From the NCBI GenBank assembly GCA_010093995.1, contig ML992517.1:14677-78676 (forward strand): a DNA stretch of 64,000 bases, read 5' to 3'. The position numbers were made by a program, and so were the translations under genes. The stretch comes from Elsinoe ampelina. Lineage: Eukaryota. The notes beneath the pieces were generated by a model. It was given only the letters and a program-made list of their open reading frames with translations, was not told the DNA's origin and ran no database searches. This document shows positions 7,485-48,674 of the stretch, one piece after another; position 1 is the stretch's first letter; every line of letters starts with the position of its first letter.

Positions 7485-8921
7485 TTACGCAGAGCTATAC
7501 TGCTGGCACTGGCCGGGGAACTTTCGGTCCGTCACGGTCTCTCCAAGAATACCATGCTCCATCAGGTTCGCCAATCCCCATGTCCCCGGTGCCTTGTAGC
7601 TCCACAAGAACCACCCGGCGGCATTCGCCTCAAAGGTGTCAAGCTCTGCCTCCAAGAGTTTGGTGGTGGCGTCCCTCATTGGTTGTCTCCAGGTGGTCAT
7701 GTCGTCGACTGAGCACTGGCAGCCCTCTGTCGAGCACTGCTTGCCTGCAATCGAGCTGCCATCAGGGTTGACGCAGACAATTGTTTGTGCAGAGAACTCG
7801 CCGACGATGACCGGAACTTGAGTTTCGGATGGAACGAGATTGGTAGATGACCATTTGCAAGCCTTCTCGATGTGCTGCTCCTGCGTGAGCTGAGAGTCCG
7901 CATCGACTTGGTTCTGGTAAAGATGGGTGTCGATCCAGAAGGCAGGGTCACTAGCAGTGTTGCTGTTCAGCTCTTTGCCGAGATCTGCCCACTTCTTTGG
8001 TCCTTCGAAAGCGTCGTGCATGATGATCTTGTAAGGCACTTGTTGGCCGCTGGTCAATGACTGGAAGGTCGATTTCGCCCAATCGTGAGTCTTCTGTGGA
8101 TCAATGCTGTCAGACCAGCAGATTGGCTCGTTGACCAGCTGGATACCCCAGACGATGTCGGAGTATTCTTCCGTTCCGTAGATTGAGGTGATCTGCTCGA
8201 GCGCCGATACAGCTGCGTCCATGTTGTTGTCCTTCTGCCAGAGCGCTTGACCGGCTTGCCCCGAATTGTCGAAGCCGTTCTGACTGCCGGGAACGCCGTG
8301 GAGATCGATCAGCACTTGTAGATTGTTGTTCCTGGACCACTCAAGAGCGTCCTTAAGGTATTTGTCCGCGCCTGTCTTATAAGGCGTGTCATCGGAATGA
8401 TTGTATGCCCAGTAGCCGATAGGTATACGAAGGGTATTGATGCCCCAGGACGCGATCTTAGCAATGTCTTGCTCAGTGATGTAAGTACTCCAGTGCTTGT
8501 CGAGAGCTTCTTGGCTACCTTCAATCTGGTCGAACGTGTACTGGTCTTTGGCGTCGGCGAATGCGCCTTGGAAGACTTCTGGAGTCATCCACTTCTCTAA
8601 CACAAGCCAGCCACCAAGATTGACACCTCTGATCTTGTCAGGCGTGGTGGTCGTTGCCTCTTGACTGTCGGTCTCGGTTGCCTCATCTGTGGATTCATCA
8701 GAGTCTGAATCGGCGTCGCTGTCGCCGGAAGGGGTCGCTGGGAATCCACTCGTAGGGTCAATCGTTGAGTCAAGAGCAGTGACTGAAGCCGTGCCAGCAT
8801 CGTAGCCCACGGAGTTGCCATCGAGCGAAAGTGAAATGTCTCGTGCGAATGTTCGTGCGGGAAGAGCTGTGGTGGTAGTCGACCATAGAGCGAGGACAGT
8901 GGCGAGGTAAGCTGCATGCAT
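7485..8921 (-). CDS. Secreted GH5 exo-1,3-beta-glucanase (Exg1-like)
   Basis: Signal peptide MHAAYLATVLAL (ATG 8921), IRGVNLGGWLVLEKWMTP, LRIPIGYW, DLHGVPGSQNGFDNSG, acid/base VNEP and nucleophile IVGEFS. Confidence 0.92.
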   Translation of the reverse strand: MHAAYLATVLALWSTTTTALPARTFARDISLSLDGNSVGYDAGTASVTALDSTIDPTSGFPATPSGDSDADSDSDESTDEATETDSQEATTTTPDKIRGVNLGGWLVLEKWMTPEVFQGAFADAKDQYTFDQIEGSQEALDKHWSTYITEQDIAKIASWGINTLRIPIGYWAYNHSDDTPYKTGADKYLKDALEWSRNNNLQVLIDLHGVPGSQNGFDNSGQAGQALWQKDNNMDAAVSALEQITSIYGTEEYSDIVWGIQLVNEPICWSDSIDPQKTHDWAKSTFQSLTSGQQVPYKIIMHDAFEGPKKWADLGKELNSNTASDPAFWIDTHLYQNQVDADSQLTQEQHIEKACKWSSTNLVPSETQVPVIVGEFSAQTIVCVNPDGSSIAGKQCSTEGCQCSVDDMTTWRQPMRDATTKLLEAELDTFEANAAGWFLWSYKAPGTWGLANLMEHGILGETVTDRKFPGQCQQYSSA

Positions 8922-9641
8922 TGCGCCTGTTGTAATTGCGTAGAAGATATTGCTTGAAAATGGGATAGTGAATGAGCGAGTGAATGCTGGACCTGCCAGG
9001 CAAGAGTTCGTAAAGGAGTGTGATGATGGCCAAGCAGGCACTGTGAACGCAGCTATACAGAGAATGACTGAGAAAATGAATGAATGTGTAACAGAGAAAA
9101 CTACCACAATAGACGGAAAAGGGACATTAATCAATAGAGCCACATCAGGGTCTTCCCCTGGTCCCTGACAAAGATATCCTGGGCCAGATGAAAGATTCAC
9201 GCGTGTACGAAGGCGAATGAGATGCATTGACAGGTTCGAGCCACGCCATACGATTATCGTGAAAAGTGGATACATAAACGGGTCAGCCAGTACTCAGCGT
9301 CTAGAAGGCACTTGTGCCCAGTGCCACTCGCTGCCACATGTGAGAAGCTGCTTTGGATCGGTCTGACGGCAGCTGAATGTCGAGGATAGGGGCCGACGTT
9401 GATGCGATGTGGATGGGCAGGATTGAAGGATGTGAAAGGGAAGACCGCGGACTGGGCCTGCACGAAATAAGCTTTATGAGCCGGTCGATGTCCGACTAGC
9501 CAATCAGACGCCTCACTTTCATGCCGCTCCCAGCAGACCGAAACGTGCCCATTTTTATATGGCGGTGCGGCTCAGTGTGATCGTCACTTCGCTATGAAAG
9601 AAAAAATCCGATGCAAATCGGCCGCATACTCGATGATCTGC

Positions 9642-12600
9642 CTACAGCCACTTGCTCGTATCAAAAGTCGGTGGCAGAGTGATGATCGGCGACTCCACGG
9701 AACCTTTCATGGCCGCCGGGGTTACAACTGTCGACGCCACAGACGGAGGACTGGTAGTTGTTGCCACCACAGCGCCTGGCTTAGTGCGCCCATGACCTGA
9801 TACCGGCAAGGATGCGAAGCCCAGCTCCTCCATCTCCCCTTTGCAATCAGGACCTGCGCATTCGATCAAATCGAACACCTGCCGGAGCTCCTCCTCAGTA
9901 GCCCTGCGCGATGTATTGGTCCCCACGACGTAGACTTCGTCCAAGTCCGGCATGTCGGAGATGCCGCGCCTTGCAAGCGAACTAACCGGCGATTTCGCAT
10001 AGGATGCCCGGAATTTCTTGTAGCTCGGGTTCCGATTGTACCACGGGTCATTCGTGAGCAATGCGAAGCCAGGATCATCGACCGCCGCATGGGGGAGGCA
10101 AGGGTTGTCCAACAGGCCATCGTCCTCCGAGTTTGGCATGTTGGTGAAGACTATGGTGGCAATCGGTTGTGTCACTCGCAATGTTTGGGTCACCCAGACT
10201 GTGTGACGCGGACATCCTCTGTCCAGGGAGGTGTGACTGCCCAGCGTGGAAGTCGTCAATGACGTTGGGCACACCTTGAACTTGTTCCCTGTCCCACCAT
10301 TTTCTTTGCCGGGTAAAAGTCGAATCCAGACTCGCTTGTCTCTGGCTTGCCAGATGTCCGCAGGTGGCCATTCGTCTCTTTGACAAGACAGCTTCGGATC
10401 AAGGTGATTCATCCAGCCCCTGTGATGTTGCGAGTTGTACACATTCACTATAGGCCGCGGAGCTTGCATAGCTTTTCTCTCCGCACATGTCAGACGCCCA
10501 AGATCAGGCACCCGTTTGATGACAGACGAGTAATGGTGGCAGGCTTGTGGCGTGTCGTCACCGTTGCAGGTGATGGTCCTCACGATTTCGCTCGGAGCCT
10601 GGAACACCGGCGCCGCTGTCTTCGTCGTGGTTTTAAATTCTGCAGCCCGCTTCGCCAACGCGTTGCGGCAAGTCCTCGTTCTGGTGGGCGCCATGGTGAT
10701 TTCTCTTGGTGGAGGTCGATCGACTTTCGGCTGTAGTGGTTTATCGATCTTGAGCTCATGTTCTTCACCCCTGAAGTTGATACGAGCTCTGCCACTCTTG
10801 GCAATACCCTTTGCACATACATTCGTCAATGCGGGCATGGCAATTTGGGCAGCAATTCTTATCAAAAGGCCTGTAGCTGTCAGTCCATTGGCTGTCCATA
10901 CGTTCCTGATGACCGCACATACCAATGCCAGGGATCAAGGTCATTGGTGTGATAACAGCCATGATAAGGCCTCGACACACCAGCTTCGCCGCTGCTTCCA
11001 TCGCAAGATCCTCCGCTGCAGATTTCGCCTTGTCAATCGCGACATCTTTCACATCATCCTCGACCTGCTCCAGCGTAATTGGCGGTCTGAAGCCGCGACA
11101 ACAGTAGGTCTGCAGTCCGCCGGCACAATTGTGGTCCTTGATGCCTGTTCGGCTGTTTGTGTTCCGGGTAAGTGCAACCTCACCTTCGGCACAGCCACCC
11201 TGGCAGGACAAGCCCTCTCCACGGTAGCCACGCCATGTGCACTCTCCCATTGTTGACCCTTTTGTGCAGCAAAGTCGCCGATACTGTCTACGTGGGCATC
11301 TGTCCATAGTTGAGAGCTCACCTGGTTGGCCATTCATCTTCGAAGCCTCGAAGTCCGACGGAGGACAGAGTTCATCGCATCTGGTTGTATAACACAGACC
11401 CTTGGCGGCTTCGTCTTGATAAGCGAATTCAGCTTCTGCGATCTCCTCCTCAGAGAGCGGAGGGAGCTGTGGACTGATCTGCTTCTGGTCGACTTGGTCA
11501 ATTGCCCAGACCATGAGACCGCCTGTCATGTCAGTTGTGATTCACACTCAAAACCAAGACGTTACGTACCCAAGCAACGAGAGTTTGCGAACTCCCGTTT
11601 CTGCTGCAACGTTTCGTGGTCGTCGTAAGAAACCCATTGTGTATCGTCCCATGACGTCCCTGTTCACGTGTGAGCATCATTAGTGTCACGTAGAAGAGGC
11701 ATGACCTACATTTGACACCGGCCTTCTGGTCGTGCACTGGCTTCAGGCCATGCTGGTCGATTATCTCCAAGATTTCCCGCAAATTCAAAATACCCGATGC
11801 TCCTGAACATGGACCCGGTCGTGCACCGCCGGAGAAGCGACAAATTCCATCTGGCTTATTGCATTTTGGATCTGTCAGCGTGAAGCTACGTCCGTAGTCT
11901 GAATACAGTCAGTATGAGCAACGCTGTCTTCTCATGGACATACAGCCTTGTCCGAGGATGACTTTCTCGGGCTTAACACCTGCACGCCATAGCAGATCCA
12001 ATCCAAGATCGATCTCTGTCAAGTTGGTATGAGGGGCGATGAAAGGACCGACGAACTTTGAAGCGGCGTCCCAGGTACCATGCAAGTCGTATGACATGAG
12101 ATTGAACCAGTCCACATGAGGTTGATGTTCTGCCAGCTTGAAGTGTTGGAGATACCAGTACGACGCTGGTACCGTTATGGTGTAGCCGTAACGCTTTCCA
12201 AACGCCGCTTTGATATCTCGAGAGAGCAACACAAAGTTGGCTGAGTCTTGTGGTCGACCACCTCGATCGTCTGCGACAGTCAATAAGAAGTTTCCAAGAT
12301 ACGAGCAAGATTCACGCACTGGCCGTCGGATACTCCCAGTCTAGATCCAACCCATCGAAGCCATATGTGTTCATGAAACGTATCAGGCCGTCTATGAATT
12401 TCTTCCGATTTGCGGCGTTCATCGACATGTCGCTGAAAGCTTTCTGGAATGGTCCAGCTTCGGACGTCAGCTCGTGCCTTGACAGAACTATCGACAAACT
12501 CACGGTCGCTGAACGACCAACCGCCCACGCTTACCCACGTCTGCAAGCCCGGTTTCTTCTCCTTCAAGGCAGTGAAACGACCGAGCAGGGAAGCAGCGTT

Positions 12601-13300
12601 TTTGTCCATCGGGATAATCTGGAAGGTAATTGGATCGAAGAAGACAAAAGCAAAGTTGAGATGCTTGAACCCATCAAGGTTGAGGTCTTCCGGGGTTATC
12701 TTGCCGCAAGGACGGGTGTTAGCCCAGCTCTCGTAGTAGCCTATAGATCGTTTCCCAACACTGTTGCTGTCGTGTGGGCAACTTGGTCGGCGTACATTGC
12801 CGCAGCCTCCAAATCCAGTTTGACAGCCTGCAGAGACGTCACAGAAGTCGGGGGTCGATCCGCAAAACCTGGAGACTGTCAGGGATGAAGAATGCACGAG
12901 CAGAAAAACGAACCCGAATTTGGAGCAACAGACTCCGAGCGGACATTTCTGCTTCCCTGGTGCACCAAATTCGCCACACTCCGCTTTAGCGTTGCAATTT
13001 GAGGTGCAATTGCCAGGACCGCATTCGGAGGAAGAATACCCACAGAGGTTGGTCACCTATCACTTAGTCAGTCTAAGCTGCACCGAATCTATGGTCAACT
13101 CGTACTCCGCTGCAACAGGCACCATTGGGGCATGGAGTCTGCGCATTGCATGTACCGATCGGAAGGTCTAGCAATTGAGCATTTGGTCCGTTACCGAGCA
13201 GAGCAACCGGATGATCCAGGGCGACGTCCGTGTCTCCACGGGTAGGACTCAGCAGCCCACAAGCGGCGATGGCACCAAGAAGGAATTTCGTATGTCTCAT
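9642..13300 (-). CDS. Secreted subgroup-C (killer-toxin-alpha-like) GH18 chitinase with CBM18 hevein modules and a long C-terminal extension containing a NucA/NucB-like nuclease motif; about 8 introns
   Basis: Signal peptide, Cys-rich CPNGACCS and CPLGVCCSKFGFCGSTPDFC modules, SIGYYESW, intact catalytic FDGLDLDWEYP, MSYDLHG, WVSYDD and GGLMVWAIDQ. Introns I traced by hand keep the frame to the stop at 9642. Confidence 0.92.
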
Positions 13301-14228
13301 GGTGTCTGTGTAACAGAGACTGTTCTGCGTTCGAGGTTGGGACTGATGAAAAGTGGTGGATGAGGGATCATTGACAAGAACAAGAGAAAGTGAACATCAC
13401 CTTGATGGTCGCCTTCGTATGACCGAAAGTGATGTCGCAGTCGAGCTTGCATCAGGTATCGCTGTATCGTCCAGTGAGTGTCAATTTTTGAAGTTCTGAC
13501 GAAATTTGTCATAAGGGGCATGTATGTACAACACATGCTACTCCATCATACAACCTTCAATGGAGCTGGCTGTTCACTTAGCGATAACCTTGTCGTCGGG
13601 TCAATTTGAGATTATCGGGCTATGCTCTCGTCCAATTACCTCGAAGGAAGTGGCTCGCGGCTGTCTTCTGCACTACTAGCATGCAATCAGATGATGACAC
13701 GACGGCCGTCTACAAGGATGGCTGACAGATTATGTGTTTCAGAATACCAGAACCCTGTGTACGACTGTGGCTGCAGGTCGGACGCCTCGGGATCCACCTT
13801 GTGCGCTGCCTGAGGTCGAAACTGTCGTTCCCACCAATCGAGTGTTTTTCCACGGCCGCGAGCTGGTTGATAGCCAAGGAAAGGTGACCAGCCACAGCGA
13901 TCACGCTCTGTGGACGTTCACACATCTGATGCAGCTGCATTTGCTCGGAATTAGGATTATCACATTGACAGTTGCCGCAAGTTTGTGTCCAGGATCCTCG
14001 ATCACAAGTCCTAGACCCCGTAGCCAGCCCGTGCATCCTACCTGCTCTTTCAGACCAGTCTCCGGGCCATTGAACGACCACGCCTGCTGACAAAACATGG
14101 TGCTCTTGAACCCGCCTTGATGCATTGGTAGGTGGACGGATCGAAGAGGCTGCATATACTTGGAGAAGCAAGCTCGGTTTTCTTTGAGCTGTGACATGAT
14201 CACCCAAATTTGACGAAGTCCCAGAAAG

Positions 14229-16078
14229 ATGTTCTCCGATCCGAAAGTCGCGGTGATTCTACTTACCATAATAGCCACGAACGCTTTCCAGCTGTACCCT
14301 TTGGTGAGACCCGATGCATTCGGGGAACTGCTTAACATCAGTCAGAACTGCCTGGCTGCACTGTAAGAACCACGCCGATACTCTCAATATCGACGACTGA
14401 CAGTCGTCGAGAAACACTACTCTCAATTGCGATCCTGACTTGTTTCGTTGGACGTTGGCGGTGGACGATGTCTGGTGGAGTGTCGAGAACACGAGCACTC
14501 TCTGCACCGAGCAATGCAAGAATGACACACAAGTATGGATTGCCGGCGTCGAGGACGCTTGCTTCGATCAGGATATTCATGCCGCAGGCCGCATAGTCCC
14601 AGTCGAGACTGTCAGCTCCCGATACGTGGAGGGCTTCAACATTGCTTGCATGCAGTCGAGCTCTCAAGATTGGTGTCTCGTCGAGTCACAACGTTGGGTG
14701 GGATCCGAGATTGTCGGAAGTGATTGCGACTCGAATTCCAGTCTCGCGGTCTGCTCAAGCCTACCGAATGCAACAACAGCCAACCAACGAATCGCCAACC
14801 TGTACGAAGACAGCTTGCTTTGTTCAGAATGTTTTTTGAGAATGATGTATGCGCGGGTGACTTCCGAGTTCCTCCCAGATGCAGACTATTCGGACCATCT
14901 CGTGCAGGAGTTTCAGGACATTCAGGCCATCTGTCAAACCTCGGTGGGCGAGCTCACAACCAGGAATCTGCCATACTACGAGACAGCAACCACCACGGCG
15001 AGTCTTACCAGATTGGGTTCCAGTTCTGCAGCTACGTCTGCTGCATGCGCCGGCAAAATGGCAGACGTCCTGTTCGCAAGCTCGACGGTCCCATTCGAAG
15101 CTTGCAACGAGCTTGCAGCCAAATTCGGCGTCGCGACAGGTGCCCTCGTGTATGCAACAGGAACGGACGATTGCTATTCCCCTGATTTGGTGTGTGTTCC
15201 GCCACCCTGCGCAACAAGATTGGTGAAGGAGGGCGAAAATTGGTAAGTAAGCTGCACCCGTGACTGCGGTCGTTTGCTGACTCGGCAAAGCTCGAGCATT
15301 GCAGCAGCTATTTCCACCGAAAGTAGACCCGTGAGCGTGGCTCAGCTAGCCACGTGGAACCCACACATAATGGGCGCCTGCGACTATCTGCGAGTCGACC
15401 AACTTCTTTGCTCCGAGTGAGTCCTCCACTACCGGAAGAATTTAGAGATAGCTCACATCGTGAAGGCCACCCGGCGGTTTATGGGAAAGTCCACCGCCAA
15501 GCTCCTTACCCGAGAACGGCCATGGTCCGGTTCGAGGAGGGCCAGGAAGCACACCTTTGCTGCGAGAAGTCCTCAATCCTGAGAAGGCCCCAAGCTCTGT
15601 CCAGAATGGCATCGCCACGACATGCAACCGCTATGTTGTCGTCGACACTATCGAAGCATCGTGCTCGAAAGCTGCGAACGATGCTGGAATTTCGCAGGAA
15701 AGGTTGTTTGAGCTCAATCCAGTACTGGGCGCCTTCGGCGAAAAGTGTGATTCCCAGCTGTGGATGAGCTACTGGTACTGCGTCGGCGTGACAGACGGCG
15801 GCCCAGGAAACACGACATACAATGGTACAACAACGTCGCCAAGCCTGTCCAAACCTTTGAGAACGGTAGAGCCAAGCCCGATCCACCCCGGAATAGACTC
15901 AAATTGCAATCGGTGGATGCAAGCAGAGTCTGGAAGCACCTGCTGGAGCCTGGCTTCTGCCGCAGGCATCGACCTGAGTCTTCTGTACCAATGGAACGCA
16001 GTCTTGGGTGACACAGGTCGTCACTGCGAGACGCAGATCTGGCCAGGCTCTTTCTACTGCGTTGGGGTGGCTTCATAG
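14229..16078 (+). CDS. Secreted multi-LysM protein (fungal Cys-rich LysM effector type, about 4 LysM), 3 introns
   Basis: ATG 14229, MFSDPKVAVILLTIIATNA signal. Cys-rich N-terminal domain (LLCSECFL). LysM repeats CSSIAAA..VSVAQLATWNP..C..LLC, CSKAANDAGISQERLFELNP..CDSQLWMSYWYCV and CWSLASAAGIDLSLLYQWN..CETQIWPGSFYCV. Confidence 0.9.
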
Positions 16079-16403
16079 TCGACCAGATCAACGAGCTCCG
16101 CGTTGTAAGGAAGTCCACCTAGACCGGACAACTGCTGGGATATCGCTTTTGAAGGCACAATCGATCTGCCGCGGTTTCATAGCTTCAGTCTAGCTCCCGG
16201 CGCGAATGTGACGAAGGGTGGAAGCATGATCTGGTCTGGATATTCGTAGCGTGTGACCAATTGATTTTGCAGACACTTCTGTACTCCAACGTGATTTTTC
16301 AAGAGCTCAGAGCTCCGAGCGAAAGGTTGGGATGTTGCCACCTGATTGTGCCGCGACAGGAGAATTGGACTACCTATCGCTGAGACGTCCATCCTCTTGC
16401 TCA

Positions 16404-17327
16404 TCAAGTCTCAGTAACACTCTCTATGTCGTCTCCCTCACCCTCCTGATCGTCGTCCTCCGATGGCGGTCCTTGAAGGTTGCTGAGTTCAGCGACGCGG
16501 AATGCCTGGACTGCTGCTATGCATTCTTCGCGACGAAAGTGATTTGGCCAGCCATGTTCTTGATGCAACCTTGCAATCTCCTGTGCAGGCGTCAGAATGA
16601 ATCAGCGTAGCAACAATGCAAGTGGGATGATACTAATCCTTCTCCCTGCGAGCCATCCCCTATTGTTCCTTCGATTTCATGCTCGTGGTGAGTTTGTGGT
16701 ACATATTCCAGAGCTCGAATCTTGTGGTAGATCTCATCAAAGTACGGTCTGATCGGCACGGCTTTACATCCAAGCCAAGGGTCGTAATCGGGAGCATCGC
16801 TCTCTATGTAGCCATCGGTAGGTATGATAGAACCTTCAGCAGGTTAGCTACGCTTCCGGAGGCATGTAATATACAGACGTGCCCTTTTTTGTGTCAATGC
16901 ACCAGAACGTGGCGTAACGTCCCGTGGTCAGAGTAATGACCTCTGGTGGAGGGGTTGCATCGAACGGCGCAAGGCCCATTTCCGACCAGTCTTTCTTCGC
17001 TAGGGCCTCCTTGTTGATCCTCCACATTCTCCAGCTTTTCTGCAAGTAGGATATTGAGAATGCGCCAAAGAACACCTCCCATTCCTCGACCATATCGTCC
17101 TGGATATAGGGGATGCGCCGTAATAGTTCGATAACAGCATCTGATCGATCCAGATGACGAAGCAGATCAATATGAAGTTCCTTGTCGCTCCAACCTTCGG
17201 GTGGCGGATGTTTGATCTTTGATTTGTCGAAATAGGCCATGCTGGCAAGAAGTTCATAGTGCCTGAGCAGGCATTCAGCCACCAGCTGGGGACTGTAGGA
17301 GTCCTGGGAACGGATGGAGGTGTTCAT
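16404..17327 (-). CDS. Conserved fungal cytoplasmic protein with SUKH/SMI1-KNR4-like features; 2 introns
   Basis: Exon 1: YELLASMAY..IKHPPPEGW..AVIELLRRIPYI..VITLTTGRYATFWCIDTKKG. Exon 2: SIIPTDG..YFDEIYHKIRALEYVP. Exon 3: EIARLHQEHGWPNHFRREEC..*. No signal peptide. The gene model is solid; the fold call is inference. Confidence 0.7.
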
Positions 17328-18137
17328 CGTTCAGCAAAGGCGATTTGATGAAAGGGATTGTTGTAGACCCGAACATGTTTGATAGCAAGCGTAAGGTAAG
17401 AATCAAGACTCGAGAGGCATGAGGTCCCGGTAGCACAAGAATTAGCCAATGGGAGTACGAGTCTTGTGGCCATTTTTGGTTTAGCGCTAAAATCGCGCGC
17501 GTGACATCGCCCTCTCTCACCTGACCAGACATAACTGACCATCATCATTCGTCGCTTGACAGCCAGGCAACATACAAGGATAACTATTTAGCAAAGTACT
17601 GATTCGCCACAATCTGCCTATTCGACCTTTCTGAAGAGCTTCGCATCGGCCACGCGAGATTTTCCTTCCAACCTCATATGAAGCATCGAGATCACGTGTT
17701 CAATACTAGCTGTACGTCTTTCCTGATTCATCAAATACTTGGTTCACAAGTTCGCGAGCTCGCGAGCACCGGAAACCCTTCTGGAAAGTCCCGTGCTCTG
17801 CCCCCAGCACGCTTCGCATTCAGCACTCGTCGCGACGTTCGTGCTTACGCGGCCATCGACAACCATGTCGACGCCCACGCGATTCACCGAGTAGGCGCAT
17901 ATGAGCATGTCGACCAGTTTGCGTCTTTAATGTCAGCTCGTTACAGCGTCTAGGTGGGGGTCGACGTGCCGGCCCCGCTGCTGCACTGTCACCATGCAGG
18001 AACCCATGCTGACATGAGATCCAAGGTAGCATCCTTCTGCCAAGCCCGATTGATCAGACCTTCGCAAGGACGATACGTTCTACGAGAACTTACGCGACGT
18101 CCATAAGAAAGACAAGAAAGAGCTGGGACAAGCTATA

Positions 18138-18971
18138 ATGCCGTCCGTCGTCAAGCGTAAGCGGGACCAAGGAGACCAGACCGCGCCTACCAAGCAGCCC
18201 CCCGCGCCAGAGTACACCCACGCATCTTCCTTCGGTCCTCAGTATCTTCAAGGACCCACAGAAGCAGACCTGGCAGAGGCTCTCCAACAGCACAACAACA
18301 AAGGTATGCCTCCATCGGCGGCCAACACGGCGAACGGACAGGACGCGAGCGACACTGCCAATGCTGCACTGCACTTTGGCATGTCTGGCAACAACCAGCA
18401 GGAAGCAAGCTTCCTCGCTCAAACACCAATCGAGAGCGCCGAAGCCGCACCGGAGCCGAACTTCGAGATCGAGTCCCCCAAGCCATCCAGCTCTACCCCA
18501 CAGTACACCATCGAGCAACCCAAGGGTGCAGGACCTGTCCTAGCTCCTGCCTCCGTGTCACCCCACCCGGCAGTCGTGAACCCGTCATCAGACTCTCCAC
18601 CGACCTCACCTGGCAAAGGAGATGGCAAGCTGAAAGTCGGCACGGAAGAATGGGCCGCCGTACGTCGCAACAACCACAAAGAAGTCGAGCGAAGGCGTCG
18701 TGAGACGATCAACGAAGGCATCAACGAGCTTGGCAAGATTGTACCTGGCGCAGAACGTAATAAGGGCAGCATTCTTTCGCGCGCGGTCATGTACATCACC
18801 GATCTTACTGAGCGTCAAAAGGAGATGGAGACCAAGAACAACCTCGAGAAGATGATGTTCGAGCAAGCCATTGCCGAGATGAGCGCGAGTGGTGACAAGC
18901 TCAAGTCGGAGGTGAAGAGGCTCGAGGATCTCGTCGCTGTCTTGAGGGGCAAATTAGGGGAGAAGGCGTAG
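18138..18971 (+). CDS. CBF1: bHLH-zipper transcription factor, Cbf1/centromere-binding factor 1 type
   Basis: RRNNHKEVERRRRETINEGINELGKIVPGAERNKGSILSRAV followed by a leucine-zipper LEKMMFEQAIAEM. Confidence 0.85.
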   Translation: MPSVVKRKRDQGDQTAPTKQPPAPEYTHASSFGPQYLQGPTEADLAEALQQHNNKGMPPSAANTANGQDASDTANAALHFGMSGNNQQEASFLAQTPIESAEAAPEPNFEIESPKPSSSTPQYTIEQPKGAGPVLAPASVSPHPAVVNPSSDSPPTSPGKGDGKLKVGTEEWAAVRRNNHKEVERRRRETINEGINELGKIVPGAERNKGSILSRAVMYITDLTERQKEMETKNNLEKMMFEQAIAEMSASGDKLKSEVKRLEDLVAVLRGKLGEKA

Positions 18972-19578
18972 GAGTCGCATGCGTTGTTCAGGGCGAAACG
19001 GAGCCACGCGCGGCGCCACAGACTCAATCACTTCAACTTGCTGGTCGACCACTAATAGAAGATACGAAGACAAGCACAGCACCAAAAAGGAAGCATCAGC
19101 AAGTTGCATCAACCACGCTGCTGGCCAGAGTCAAGCAGCGAAAATCACGATTCATGACCACGTTGGGCGTATTCGATCAGGACTTTGATTCAGCAAGGGG
19201 CGCGCATGGGGAGGGTACGGCTTGGTGTTTTTTGACGAGTGATCGACTTGGGATCAGACAATCTCTCCTTCACCAGGGATCAATGGCAAAACATATGCAT
19301 GGTGGCTTCTGAGCGCTTCATTTTCGGTGGTTTGTGGCCCCTCGACGCTTGTTGTTCGAGGGGTAGCTTGCTCTATCGTCTATACCATCTCCTAGAACAT
19401 CGTAATGCAAGCTGAGTGGTTTTGATGACCTGCCTGCTCCGAAGAGTAGACAGACCGACTGATATCGAATGTGACCGTCCAGACCCGCCGAGCTGACAGC
19501 GCGTACCATCCTTCTCACAGCCTAATCCCCCACAGACACCTAGATCCATAGATTGACCATACAAATGTCCCCAACCAC

Positions 19579-44606: not shown

Positions 44607-46222
44607 ATGGCCTCCATGAGACTGAGCTCGTCGCTGCTGCGCAATGCTTCTTCTGTTGCTCCGTTGAGAGCTAGCTTTGCGGCTCGCGCATACTCATCAA
44701 AAACCACCGTATGTCCAAGCAATGTCTCTATTTGCTCTGTTGTACTTACTGACGGATCCTCACAGTCCCTCAAAGAGACCTTTGCCGCAAAGATCCCCGA
44801 GAACGTCGAGAAGGTCAAGAAGCTCCGAAAGTAAGGAAACAGGTCTAGCAAGAGCATGAACAACAGCTAATACCAATGGTGTAGAGAGCACGGTAACAAG
44901 GTCATCGGCGAAGTAACTCTCGATCAAGTCTACGGTGGTGCCCGTGGTATCAAATCTCTTGTATGGGAAGGCTCAGTCCTTGACTCGGAAGAGGGTATCC
45001 GTTTCCGTGGCAAGACCGTAAGGAGGCCCTTCGCGTATCTGACACCAATTGTTAATCAACTATAGATCCCAGAGTGCCAGCAGCTCCTGCCCAAGGCTCC
45101 AGGTGGAGAGGAGCCACTCCCTGAAGGCCTTTTCTGGCTTCTCCTGACTGGCGAAGTCCCATCAGAACAGCAAGTCCGCGATCTCTCAGCTGAGTGGGCT
45201 GCTCGCTCCGATGTCCCAAAGTTCGTGCAGGAGCTTATTGACCGCTGCCCGAATGATCTCCACCCCATGGCTCAGTTCTCCCTCGCTGTCACCGCTCTCG
45301 AGCGCGAGTCTGCTTTCTCCCGCGCCTACGCCAAGGGTATGAAGAAGGCCGAGTACTGGGAGCACACCTTCGAGGACTCCATGGACGTCATCGCTAAGCT
45401 CCCTGGTATCGCCGCTCGTATCTACCGCAACGTCTTCAAGGATGGCAAGGTCGCCCCGAATGAGAAGGACAAGGATTATGGCTGGAACTTGGCCAACCAG
45501 CTCGGTTACTCCAGCAACTCTGACTTTGTCGAGCTTATGCGCCTGTACCTAACTATTCACACTGATCACGAGGGTGGCAACGTCTCCGCCCATACCACTC
45601 ACCTTGTCGGCTCCGCTCTGTCCTCCCCGGCTCTCTCCTTGGCCGCTGGTCTGAACGGTCTCGCTGGTCCCCTTCACGGTCTTGCCAACCAGGAAGTGCT
45701 CAACTGGCTGCTTGAGATGAAGTCGGCCATTGGCAACGATCTCAGCGACAAGGCCATTACTGATTACCTCTGGTCTACTCTCAAGGCCGGCCGTGTTGTT
45801 CCAGGTTACGGTCACGCCGTGCTCAGAAAGACTGACCCGCGTTACGTCTCCCAGCGCGAGTTCGCCCAGCGCAAGCTGCCAGAAGACCCAATGTTCAAGC
45901 TTGTCAGCCAGGTCTACAAGATCGCCCCCGGTGTCTTGACCGAGCACGGAAAGACCAAGAACCCGTACCCCAACGTTGACGCCGTAAGTTAACTTAACAT
46001 TGGTTCGATGAGTATTTACTGACATGAACCCAGCACTCTGGTGTCCTTCTCCAATACTACGGTCTCAAGGAGCAGAGCTTCTACACTGTTCTTTTCGGTG
46101 TCAGCCGTGCCCTCGGTGTTCTTCCTCAGCTCATCATCGACCGCTCCCTCGGTGCACCAATCGAGAGGCCCAAGTCCTTCAGCACAGAGGCCTTTGCCAA
46201 GCTTGTCGGCGCCACCCTCTAA
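44607..46222 (+). CDS. CIT1: Mitochondrial citrate synthase, 4 introns
   Basis: Mitochondrial presequence, [67 protein letters not shown] and IERPKS; stop 46220-46222. Confidence 0.97.
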
Positions 46223-46510
46223 GCGGGTGACGACAGAAAATGAGACGGATTCATGGGATGGGATAGACCGGGGGTGGATGCAAGTTGAGCTGTGTTTCTC
46301 AAGCCGTTCGGATGGAGCACATACTTGATCAGATCTGCTTTCTCTTGCTGTATACCTCGTGAAATTGACAATGTGTATCTACATAGTCGACAGACTCTAC
46401 TCTACAGAACAATTTGTTTTATCCGAGCAGTGCAGCAATGTCCGAAAGGGGTCTTCCCGGCTCCCCTCGGTGAACAAAGTTGGCTGCAAGTCTTCTCAAC
46501 GCAATCGGTA

Positions 46511-46551
46511 ACGCTTGCAAGGGGGTTTGTCAATCGACCCCCTTTGTCAAT
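46511..46551 (+). repeat. Left TIR ACGCTTGCAAGGGGGTTTGTCAATCGACCCCCTTTGTCAAT
   Basis: Exact reverse complement of 48675-48715; internal direct repeat TTTGTCAAT x2. Confidence 0.95.
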
Positions 46552-48674
46552 TTTGCCGATCTTAGCCAATCCTGACGACCAATCGGCCGTACCGATTGGC
46601 TAAGGATTGCTATACAATTGGTACTTCTTGGCGGTCGGATTACTTCATGGAAATTGCTTAAAATCGAAGAGGAACTAAAGCTAAAGAGCATATGTAATTT
46701 ATCGATATAGACGAATTAATAGTGTAATAAAAAGTTACTCTAGCGTAATAGGCTTATCACTAGATTAGCTAGTAACGGCTTAACTAGCTATTTAAGCTAT
46801 GGAGGATTAAGTGTAGCTAGCTAAGTACTTAGCCTTATACTCTTTTACCTTCTTTATAGCCTTAGCATAATAGTGCTTAAAGTAATCTTAATAGTATAAG
46901 GCCTTATACTAAGCTAGTGTATCTTCTTCTAAGCTCTTTAAGGCCTTACTAGCTTACCTCTTGCCTTAATAGGCATGCTTCTTCTGCTGCTTAAGGGTAG
47001 TAAGGTAATTATAATAAGTTTAAATTTACTAAGCCTCGGCAGTAGAGAGGATAGTTAGACTAGTAATACGTAAGGAGAATATCTTCTTATTTTACTTAAG
47101 GCCTTAGTAGAGGTAGTAGTTCTCCTTATAGAGAAGAGTAAGCTTATTACTATAAGCTTTAAAGGCTTTTCCGAGATAGTAAATATCTTTAAGACTATTA
47201 TTAAAAAGCGAGGTAACTATATATTAAGCGTGGCTATTAAACTAGCAATTCGACTAAGAGGTAACTTAGTAATATTACTCCGGATCGGCCTCTTCTAGTA
47301 TAGCTAAAGGGAAAGGTATTTCTTTACGAAGGTGTTAAAGAACTTATAAAGGATTAAGAGGAGCTATACTAGTACGCTAGAAGAATTAACTCTATATAAA
47401 GACTATAAAAACCTTATCTCTTACTCGACTATAGCACTAAATAAAATGCTAGTTATTTATCTCTTAGATACCTTACTATATTATAAGCTTGTTAATTATG
47501 CTATAATAGGCGTCCTTTAGGTAACTAAATATAGTAATATCGAGAGGTTATAGAAGGTAAGTTATATAAGAAGGTAGCTAGAGAATAACAATATTATAGT
47601 GCTATACTAGCTTAAGAAACTCTATACTCTTATACGAGTAATAACTATTAAGGAGGAGTAATCTCTTCTTAGTTAGATTAGATAGCGTAGTATACTTATT
47701 AAAGTGCCTTAGCTACTTAATAGTGTAAAGGCTTAAGGACTAGCTATTTTTAGAGACTTCTAGTAAAGCTTCTTATACTAAATTTTAAGTACTAAGTTGC
47801 TCTAGCTAGAGATGCTAGTTATCTATAAATATTATACTATAGAGGATAAAATAAAATAGTATAGTCTAGCTAGTAGTACTAACTATCTTAATTAATATAG
47901 TATATGTCTATTAGCTTAGTTCTATACGGAAGAACTTCTTCTTTAATCTCTTAATAGTGTAAAAGCGTTTACTACTCTATCTAATAAGGAAGCTAGTCTT
48001 ATCTATATTATAGATATTCTCTAGCTTAATCTTATAGTTTAAAAGCACTCCTATAAGGTAGTTAAACTAGTACTAGATTACCTTTAGTTAATAGCTTTAA
48101 TAAGCCCTTATATGCTCTAGTAAAGCGATGTAGTAGAGGGCAAGTTCTTAATAACAATTAAGAAAGAAGAATAACTAGTACATGCCGAGAGCTAAAGGCT
48201 AAGAATGCTATAGATAAGGTGTCTATAACTACTACTACTAAAGTAATTAGTCGGCGAGATAGATAATTATAGTAGTCTCCGGAGGGAAGCCTCTATTAAT
48301 AAGGTACTTGATATACTTAATAAGGGCCTTTTCTAAGGTAGTATTAAGTTATTAGAGATATTAAAAGGCAACTAAGTATAAGCGCCTTTAGCCCTTATAA
48401 TAGCGCTAAAGCGTTAACGGATCGATTAAATAATTAAGAGTAATAGCCTTAAGACTTTGCTCATTTTAAGGATTATCTAGAACCTTATTTATAGCTATAA
48501 TTTACTTATCTAGATCTATAGTAAAGGTGGTATAAATTAGTGCGCTTTACATAAGAGCTTAAAGCTATAGAATTTATAGCAATTTGAGATATAAGGTTTG
48601 AATTTAGCACTTCCTATTGGTTAGAGGCACGGGCCGCGACGGCAGTTTTACTCTTTATGGATAGCCAAATCGTC

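Follow-up and report, generated by a model that had tools for sequence, protein, structure and literature searches.

A chitinase carrying a NucB-like domain in Elsinoe ampelina and a linked candidate immunity gene family in Ascomycota

The window analyzed in this study is a 64-kb stretch of DNA from the grapevine pathogen Elsinoe ampelina. It contains three adjacent genes that concern us here: a chitinase gene whose product, P0152, has a long C-terminal region, a gene for a secreted protein with LysM modules, and a third gene that encodes the protein P0001 (Table 1). An earlier reading of this DNA, made from its sequence alone, had proposed that the three were apparently intact and formed a unit of delivery, toxin and immunity. 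All three were confirmed where that reading had placed them and are intact, and spliced RNA-type contigs cover the chitinase gene and the third gene. The chitinase and LysM genes are arranged head to head with their start codons about 930 bp apart, and the third gene is convergent with the LysM gene. The annotated P0152 (BDZ85DRAFT_44460) is 97-100% identical to the translation of the window, and P0001, annotated as "hypothetical protein BDZ85DRAFT_44503", matches it as well. Our results suggest that the C-terminal region of the chitinase is a NucB-like nuclease domain and that relatives of the third gene recur next to domains of this kind in other fungal loci.

Table 1. Positions in the window of the three genes, their parts and the flanking genes (aa, amino acids; ORF, open reading frame)
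Feature	Position	Strand	Basis
GH5 glucan 1,3-beta-glucosidase gene (flank, outside the module)	7485-9275	minus	Pfam PF00150
Subgroup-C-type chitinase gene, product P0152 (1091 aa)	9642-13300 (ATG 13300, stop 9642-9644)	minus	ORF/frame reading, Pfam, RNA-type contig
Chitinase introns (seven)	10870-10921, 11522-11568, 11659-11708, 11899-11943, 12271-12319, 12458-12503, 12866-12910	minus	Spliced in run X1
Conserved post-core extension (DDGL..NPC..DPGFALL..D.WY; GNSTR..T.EEL...C....C), then low-complexity tail	9645-10142	minus	Alignment A1 (53 relatives)
NucB-like beta-beta-alpha-metal nuclease core (predicted), model residues 95-244, P0152 ~776-925	10143-10592	minus	Family profile, AlphaFold2 model, Foldseek
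Putative catalytic residues D848, E849, N873	10374-10376, 10371-10373, 10299-10301	minus	Alignment to NucB
Dibasic KR, P0152 756-757 (LAKR 754-757, followed by A)	10647-10652	minus	Linker motif ahead of the nuclease core
Hydrophobic segment, P0152 ~664-700, across the last intron	10818-10978	minus	Kyte-Doolittle 19-residue maximum 2.22
GH18 catalytic domain, P0152 153-492	~11500-12750, split by introns	minus	Pfam PF00704, E 2.7e-65
CBM18 chitin-binding module, P0152 91-130	~12830-12981, split by intron	minus	Pfam Chitin_bind_1, E 6.4e-9
Secreted LysM-only protein gene	14229-16078 (ATG 14229, stop 16076-16078)	plus	ORF reading, Pfam
LysM introns (predicted)	~14363-14403, 15243-15290, 15417-15463	plus	Prediction
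Third gene, product P0001 (273 aa), candidate cognate inhibitor/immunity protein	16404-17327	minus	Annotated product, RNA-type contigs
Third-gene introns	16580-16632 (GT-AG), 16834-16882 (GC-AG)	minus	Removed in runs X1, X2, X4, X6
bHLH (CBF1-like) gene (flank, outside the module)	18138-18971	plus	Pfam HLH PF00010, E 1.5e-12

P0152 is composed, in order, of a signal peptide, CBM18, GH18, a cysteine-rich spacer, a hydrophobic segment, a basic linker, the NucB-like domain and a conserved tail. Its N-terminus is hydrophobic and signal-like, and the GH18 catalytic motif, DGLDLDWE from residue 269, is intact and fits the pattern DxxDxDxE. A Pfam search of P0152 at E values up to 5 returned only Chitin_bind_1 and GH18, without any LysM module. 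With CBM18 present and LysM absent, P0152 is of predicted C-I type architecture in the usage of Heneghan, Salzberg & Wolfe (2024, bioRxiv 10.1101/2024.10.25.620242), an assignment made by domain content and not by a tree. About 600 residues lie beyond the GH18 domain. The spacer has 13 cysteines within residues 493-665, and the hydrophobic stretch that follows is about 37 residues long, has Pro/Gly midway, peaks in hydropathy at residues 668-686 and is flanked by an acidic N-terminal side and a K/R-rich C-terminal side. Such a segment may be a transmembrane anchor or a translocation segment resembling that of the zymocin beta subunit.

The last 330 residues of P0152 follow the K/R-rich linker. 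Neither a Pfam search with the C-terminal exon alone (E up to 10) nor phmmer against the PDB gave a match to this region, and the likeness to NucB emerged solely from a family profile and a fold search. An exhaustive HMMER search found 346 relatives at E values up to 1e-3. Among the 36 that are at least 500 aa long, 14 have GH18 (six of these also CBM18, and one relative also has LysM), one has Peptidase_S8 and 21 have no Pfam domain; many of the apparently stand-alone relatives (280-450 aa) start at the last-exon boundary and so may be fragmentary gene calls. The protein with Peptidase_S8 (P0133, 866 aa) has its NucB-like region at 155-385 and the peptidase domain at 693-840, and may represent another carrier architecture or a fused gene model.

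In the alignment of 53 relatives (A1), residues D167, E168, P170 and C202 are invariant, C164, P171, R185 and N192 (the last at least 90% conserved) are near-invariant, as are N257, C259, G269 and D276, and about eight cysteines of the C-terminal domain are conserved. The best matches of the A1 profile in the PDB were the two NucB structures 5omt and 6ejs (E 0.016), with rDEyPPa...wIRllpgsqNggaG of the profile aligned to NucB 59-91, DRDEWPMA...VRYVSSSDNRGAG; the window's own motifs, QRDEWPPA...GKENGGTG, line up with the DRDE and DNRG motifs of NucB. PF14040, the Pfam model of NucB, was matched weakly by six of the 53 relatives (best E 0.0009). An AlphaFold2 (AF2) model of the domain had a mean predicted local distance difference test score (pLDDT) of 75, with values above 90 over most of 81-290, above 88 until about residue 290 and below 50 beyond 355. 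A Foldseek search with this model placed NucB in the top three relevant rows (probability 0.72-0.94, TM-score by target 0.56-0.63), with 0.84-0.94 as the probability of the top hit. In the available text of the NucB study, Asp93 and Glu94 of the DRDE motif and Asn117 of the DNRG motif are described as metal-binding and catalytic residues whose mutation abolishes activity (PMC5758888). D167, E168 and N192 of A1 align with these three, which makes D848, E849 and N873 their counterparts in P0152. The sequence-only reading had called the cargo nuclease-like, and this now has a type: judged from the profile, the NucB catalytic residues and the predicted fold, the C-terminal cargo is a NucB-like beta-beta-alpha-metal nuclease domain, and it would probably act as a DNase. 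Among the 34 A1 members with sufficient linker sequence, 20 have a KR there, often at a homologous place after a cysteine, and the dibasic KR ahead of the core in P0152 is a candidate Kex2-type processing site.

The product of the third gene is of a different kind. P0001 lacks a hydrophobic N-terminus or signal peptide (Kyte-Doolittle 19-residue maximum 0.93), and its signal-less nature and convergent orientation are as first described. Searches by sequence gave no Pfam, NCBIfam or PDB family match. Word-index homology searches returned only P0001 itself (1 of 17 and 1 of 465 candidates), the ortholog in Elsinoe batatas having been missed because it is embedded in a 947-aa gene model outside the length range. 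The ESM Atlas places P0001 in a broad Ascomycota family of unannotated proteins, whose clusters have 91, 50 and 108 members, and a relative encoded in the metagenome locus L030 matched the same clusters and one more of 441. The relatives share 19-35% protein identity with P0001, and no signal-like hydrophobic start was seen in any family N-terminus inspected. Uninterrupted ORFs of this family occur in loci L030, L038, L044, L047, L048 and L049, and others have the three-exon layout of the window. Two of these ORFs (L044:1982-3229 and L038:8609-9796, both on the minus strand) have N-terminal extensions of about 130 aa when read from stop to stop, that of L044 with a cysteine-rich stretch.

The suggestion that the third protein is SUKH-like could not be upheld. 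None of 13 family members searched against Pfam at E values up to 1 matched a SUKH profile (PF09346, SUKH_5/6 and others), NCBIfam gave none, and a profile of the family searched against the PDB at E values up to 10 matched no SUKH chain. What the family does share with SUKH proteins is a position beside a putative nuclease toxin domain. The ESM Atlas model of P0001 (predicted TM-score 0.80) has as its first named structural neighbours, after its own relatives, two bacterial SMI1_KNR4 clusters, with TM-scores of 0.38/0.49 and 0.43/0.56 over 152-162 aligned residues, values below the bar of the tool; this match may be taken as a weak lead towards SUKH and no more. An AF2 model from the single sequence had a pLDDT of 37. 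An ESMFold2 prediction of a complex between the nuclease (80-300) and P0001 (1-260), run without alignments, scored 0.01 against a mark of 0.34, which is evidence neither way.

The evidence that ties the third gene to the nuclease comes from its recurrence. JGI and NCBI metagenome contigs were scanned with A2, a 10-sequence alignment of the nuclease, and the 49 loci retrieved, each with up to 10 kb of flank, were reduced to 30 groups at 95% or higher identity over at least half of the shorter locus. With P0001 as a tblastn query, 20 of the 49 loci had a match. A three-round hidden Markov model (HMM) search of all stop-to-stop ORFs found relatives of the third gene in 14 of the 30 groups, the main exon scoring E 1e-38 to 1e-67 in most, and the iterated HMM matched only the third gene itself within the window. 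Each flank is 5 kb or longer in 14 of the 30 groups, and of these nine have the partner (L004, L008, L017, L018, L029, L038, L044, L047 and L048). Its placement varies. It lies upstream on the same strand, with a divergent LysM gene in between, in L004 and L017, which is precisely the order of the window; upstream on the same strand with no LysM match in L030; upstream and divergent in L033, L044, L048 and L049; downstream and convergent, 385-982 bp past the nuclease match, in L002, L008, L029, L038, L039 and L047; and downstream on the same strand at a distance of 165 bp in L018. An unbiased all-against-all clustering of the flanking ORFs produced only two recurring neighbour families, the third family (10 + 3 loci) and LysM (9 loci including the window), the other recurrent "families" being antisense shadows of the chitinase. 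The recurrence of the same gene combination in unrelated metagenome loci is more than chance, and the co-occurrence that the sequence-only reading had asked to see was found.

The carrier of the nuclease is less constant than the nuclease itself. GH18 lies upstream of it in 16 of the 30 loci, as it does in the 14 proteins mentioned above, whereas in L033 and L048 what precedes the domain is another N-terminal region with a signal, followed by a proline-rich linker, and in P0133 it is accompanied by Peptidase_S8. The partner is kept in four loci with no GH18 match in the 5.9-10 kb upstream (L018, L033, L047 and L048). The association survives four arrangements, the absence of GH18 and divergence to 19-35% identity, and it follows the nuclease domain and not the chitinase or the LysM gene. 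The variation is the reverse of the swapping of C-terminal cargo that the word "polymorphic" would denote: no such swapping was seen in searches seeded with the nuclease domain, in which alternative cargos could not surface. In L018 the NucB-like frame (9914-11418) shifts inside the catalytic motif (CQRDEYPP, then ...NIWQARD...WIRL), and may be a pseudogene or an assembly error. The same locus encodes a secreted WSC-domain protein (L018:7636-8511; PF01822, E 6e-15) 1.4 kb upstream of this frame, where no GH18 was found.

A second Elsinoe species offers a view of the same locus. The third gene has just one further named relative, P0153 of E. batatas (KVT40_006276, 947 aa), which fuses segments of the third gene, the chitinase tail and the GH5 neighbour: residues 1-196 match the third gene at 48% identity, 207-329 match P0152 689-811 (71%), 330-473 P0152 933-1088 (51%) and 474-947 the GH5 protein (92%). 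The locus is syntenic, and the remnants of the module have diverged far more (48-71%) than the GH5 neighbour. The carrier (P0152 1-688) and the catalytic core (812-932) have no counterpart in the P0153 model, and neither does the LysM protein, the comparison having been made with the gene model and not with genome DNA. P0153 reflects decay of the locus or, alternatively, a gene model that was joined wrongly.

Transcription was followed in contigs from four sequencing runs (X1, X2, X4 and X6) of three studies. These runs were not recorded as RNA; the canonical spliced joints in the contigs mean that they derive from it. Such contigs show neither strand nor absence, and their depth cannot rank genes. 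Both introns of the third gene were removed in all four runs, reproducing P0001 exactly, and splicing of the seven chitinase introns was seen in one, X1.

The LysM gene is a frequent companion of the pair. Its product has a signal-like N-terminus, and Pfam found one LysM over threshold (E 6.5e-5) and one weak one (E 0.064); the four modules first reported are therefore a count by eye only. An ortholog with three LysM stretches is found in L004, and orthologs hold the same position in L002, L004, L008, L017 and others; the divergent pairing noticed in the window is conserved in 7 of 30 loci by tblastn. The protein may bind chitin or shield the cell wall. A canonical minus-strand intron (14331-14381) opposite the 5′ end of the LysM gene was removed in X1. 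The splice pattern of the region suggests antisense or read-through RNA that runs from the side of the third gene across the LysM gene, the contigs carrying no strand, and missing splicing in the LysM sense is not evidence of silence.

As for the flanking genes, the spliced chitinase contig of run X1 reaches 9277, so that the 3′ end of the chitinase gene lies directly against the GH5 gene, which shares its strand and has its start codon at 9275. On the other side, a 314-nt GT-AG intron at 17712-18025, upstream of the bHLH ORF, was removed in RNA-type contigs of four runs. The bHLH gene accordingly has an upstream exon that ends at 17711, about 380 bp from the start codon of the third gene. Elsewhere in the window, an AT-rich block at 46001-48000 has a GC content of 0.373, compared with 0.50-0.58 in the rest.

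We propose that a chitinase-borne NucB-type nuclease and a cognate cytosolic inhibitor or immunity protein form a nuclease and antidote module conserved across Ascomycota, a proposal in which binding and toxicity are read from the arrangement and which we consider evenly balanced between right and wrong. In one form of it, the module would be a widespread toxin-immunity system in which a NucB-type DNase is brought by interchangeable secreted carriers, mostly C-I chitinases, into chitin-walled competitors, and in which a new family of cytosolic immunity proteins is encoded next door; this fuller version is possible, and we would sooner doubt it than assert it. The chitinase would enter the secretory pathway and would bind and cut chitin by means of CBM18 and GH18. 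The C-terminal metal-dependent DNase domain would be the killing part, with the hydrophobic segment and the dibasic site between the two halves, a putative layout of receptor binding, translocation and killing that would parallel zymocin and the nuclease colicins. Processing at KR and entry of the nuclease into target cells are presumed steps. The third protein would be a nuclease-specific cytosolic partner that neutralizes any nuclease reaching the cytosol of the producer, and the divergent LysM gene would be a frequent accessory. The eight or so conserved cysteines argue for an extracellular nuclease domain, and the combination of an extracellular nuclease with a cytosolic partner means that the domain has a way into a cytosol, on the pattern of zymocin immunity in the accessible part of PMC13556262. 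Of the unit of delivery, toxin and immunity originally envisaged, the nuclease and the linked partner gene have held; SUKH is left as a weak lead, cargo swapping was not seen in the searches seeded with the nuclease domain, and the novelty has to be qualified.

A number of observations weigh against this proposal. A secreted enzyme normally has no need of a cytosolic antidote. The third family has no sequence match to any known immunity family in Pfam, NCBIfam or the PDB, and P0152 has no match to PF14040 even at E values up to 10, short of its gathering score. In five of the 14 long-flanked groups (L020, L025, L034, L035 and L036) the partner was not found, so that either the pairing is facultative or these genomes have the partner at another place. 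The 30 groups were dereplicated by DNA identity only, so that some may be close relatives, and the scan used catalytic-motif patterns, which makes the conservation of motifs among the loci partly a matter of construction. The predicted LysM introns 15243-15290 and 15417-15463 were retained in the crossing RNA-type contigs of four runs. Lastly, the hydrophobic segment with its K/R-rich C-terminal flank could anchor P0152 in the membrane as a type I protein whose nuclease faces the cytosol, which would change the biology.

The alternative that survives best, though we find it rather unlikely, is that the enzyme is an extracellular housekeeping DNase, used for scavenging nutrients or directed at the DNA of biofilms or the hyphal matrix or at plant extracellular DNA traps, with the third protein guarding the producer, in the manner of barstar, against mis-sorted or retro-translocated enzyme. 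A safeguard inhibitor of this kind and immunity to re-entry account equally well for the association with the partner, and the conserved cysteines fit an extracellular enzyme. The only structural match, Bacillus NucB, is itself secreted and, in the available text on it, breaks down extracellular DNA as a non-specific DNase (PMC5758888). Scavenging, however, leaves unexplained the fusion to a chitin-binding and chitin-cutting module, the hydrophobic segment and the dibasic site, a layout that is the zymocin design as presented in the accessible text of the 2024 preprint (10.1101/2024.10.25.620242). A chitinase-NucB fusion of the same kind is also reported from yeast killer-type plasmids, as far as the available text goes (PMC8472843), and the faster divergence of the module than of GH5 between the two Elsinoe species suggests conflict or decay over housekeeping.

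If P0152 is instead a type I membrane protein, the chitinase would sit at the wall and the nuclease in the cytosol of the producer, restrained by the third protein, and the purpose could be self-directed or fusion-triggered death, allorecognition or a signal of wall damage. A cytosolic nuclease domain is the most direct explanation of a cytosolic partner; the hydropathy of the segment is well over the usual transmembrane cut-off, and its acidic and K/R-rich flanks agree with the positive-inside rule. We nevertheless judge this arrangement improbable. The conserved cysteines and the recurrent KR point to a lumenal or extracellular nuclease, Kex2-type proteases working in the secretory lumen. 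A stretch of this length with Pro/Gly in its middle could be a re-entrant hairpin, and hydrophobic parts occur also in the secreted zymocin beta subunit. That the third gene is a mere bystander, a fast-evolving Ascomycota gene from an old syntenic block with subgroup-C chitinases and without a functional tie to the nuclease, would suit its lack of a recognizable domain, the uninformative complex prediction, the five well-flanked loci without it and the size of its family (clusters of 50, 91, 108 and 441), from which some adjacency could be inherited, but is very unlikely, because inherited synteny alone would not survive so much rearrangement and divergence: the gene is found on either side and either strand of the nuclease, persists where GH18 is absent or replaced, retains only 19-35% identity and, LysM aside, has no rival among the recurring flank families.

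Our preferred proposal, of a nuclease with a cognate antidote, has to be set beside work on related clusters. The sequence-only reading had known of no description of a three-part unit with an immunity gene in filamentous fungi, a claim that stands only in part. Clusters of a C-II chitinase, a gamma-toxin and an Imm gene, with or without LysM-only genes, were published for Pezizomycotina in 2024 (Heneghan, Salzberg & Wolfe), and they consist of C-II chitinases with a separate gamma-toxin gene. In the available text of that preprint none was found in Dothideomycetes, the class of Elsinoe, or in Leotiomycetes, and C-I chitinases appear only as an outgroup. The E. ampelina locus resembles these clusters and the zymocin of Kluyveromyces lactis in several ways: chitin is targeted by a secreted "killer toxin-like" chitinase with CBM18 and GH18, the part presumed to kill is a nuclease, immunity is presumed to come from a neighbouring gene without a signal peptide, and a LysM-only gene, introns and a patchy distribution are common to both. 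It differs in that its chitinase is C-I and not C-II in architecture, lacking a LysM module, in that chitinase and nuclease form one fused protein where the clusters have a small gamma subunit secreted on its own, and in the predicted fold of the nuclease, which is that of a NucB-type DNase and not of an anticodon RNase. The ORF lists for 8000-19500 show no room or obvious candidate for a gamma-toxin gene between the three genes, no search with gamma-toxin sequences having been aimed at it. Two follow-ups of the preprint (PMC13556262 and PMC13348850) do not mention a DNase domain in the portions available.

The nearest precedent for the architecture is ORF2p (1226 aa) of the Debaryomyces hansenii linear plasmid pDH5A, which in the accessible text of PMC8472843 has a signal peptide, ChtBD1, a full GH18 and a NucA/NucB fragment. 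By this description it has the same overall architecture as P0152; it differs in being plasmid-borne, intronless and from a yeast, and no partner of the third-family type is reported there. Its authors proposed it as a possible killer protein and, in the same text, found no killer activity. Bacillus NucB itself (PF14040; PDB 5omt and 6ejs) is unlike the fungal domain, which lies inside a 1091-aa chitinase, falls below the Pfam model, has extra conserved N- and C-terminal elements and more cysteines, and has a dedicated neighbour gene. In the literature covered, which did not extend to subscription reviews (Tzelepis & Karlsson 2019) or preprint supplements, we found no account of a fused NucB-type domain in chitinases of filamentous fungi or of the partner family. 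The chitinase type with a fused DNase domain, together with the candidate immunity family, is therefore our candidate for what is new beside the published C-II clusters.

For two decades the label "killer toxin-like" has been attached to the subgroup C chitinases, and only in 2024 was a mechanism provided for C-II, by way of separate anticodon-nuclease toxins and immunity genes, leaving C-I without one. The locus described here suggests that many C-I-type chitinases bear their own lethal DNase in cis and travel with a dedicated, unannotated partner family. If the partner is an inhibitor, filamentous fungi would have a second system of killing by means of a chitinase, with a mechanism of its own, and it would extend to plant pathogens and to a class in which none had been reported. 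In that case the locus would also supply a toxin and its antidote that can be tested directly with a view to fungus-fungus antagonism and biocontrol, as well as a new fold family of nuclease inhibitors. Were the membrane-anchored alternative true, it would be a new kind of wall-linked device for self-destruction or recognition.

A final comparison is with the polymorphic toxin systems of bacteria that have HNH/EndoVII-fold nucleases and SUKH immunity proteins and which, as described in the available parts of PMC3482391 and PMC3113570, likewise combine a secreted multidomain protein ending in a nuclease of the His-Me-finger type with an adjacent small signal-less protein. The account of Zhang et al. 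(2012; PMC3482391) makes no mention of chitinases in the text available. Unlike the bacterial systems, the E. ampelina locus has a partner without a SUKH match and is eukaryotic, intron-containing and secreted through the endoplasmic reticulum; variable C-terminal cassettes were not seen among the loci surveyed, in which the nuclease is constant and the carrier varies. If the toxin-immunity interpretation is true, the module would be to eukaryotes what the DNase colicins and the polymorphic nuclease toxins are to bacteria, and would give the C-I chitinases a killing function parallel to that of C-II.

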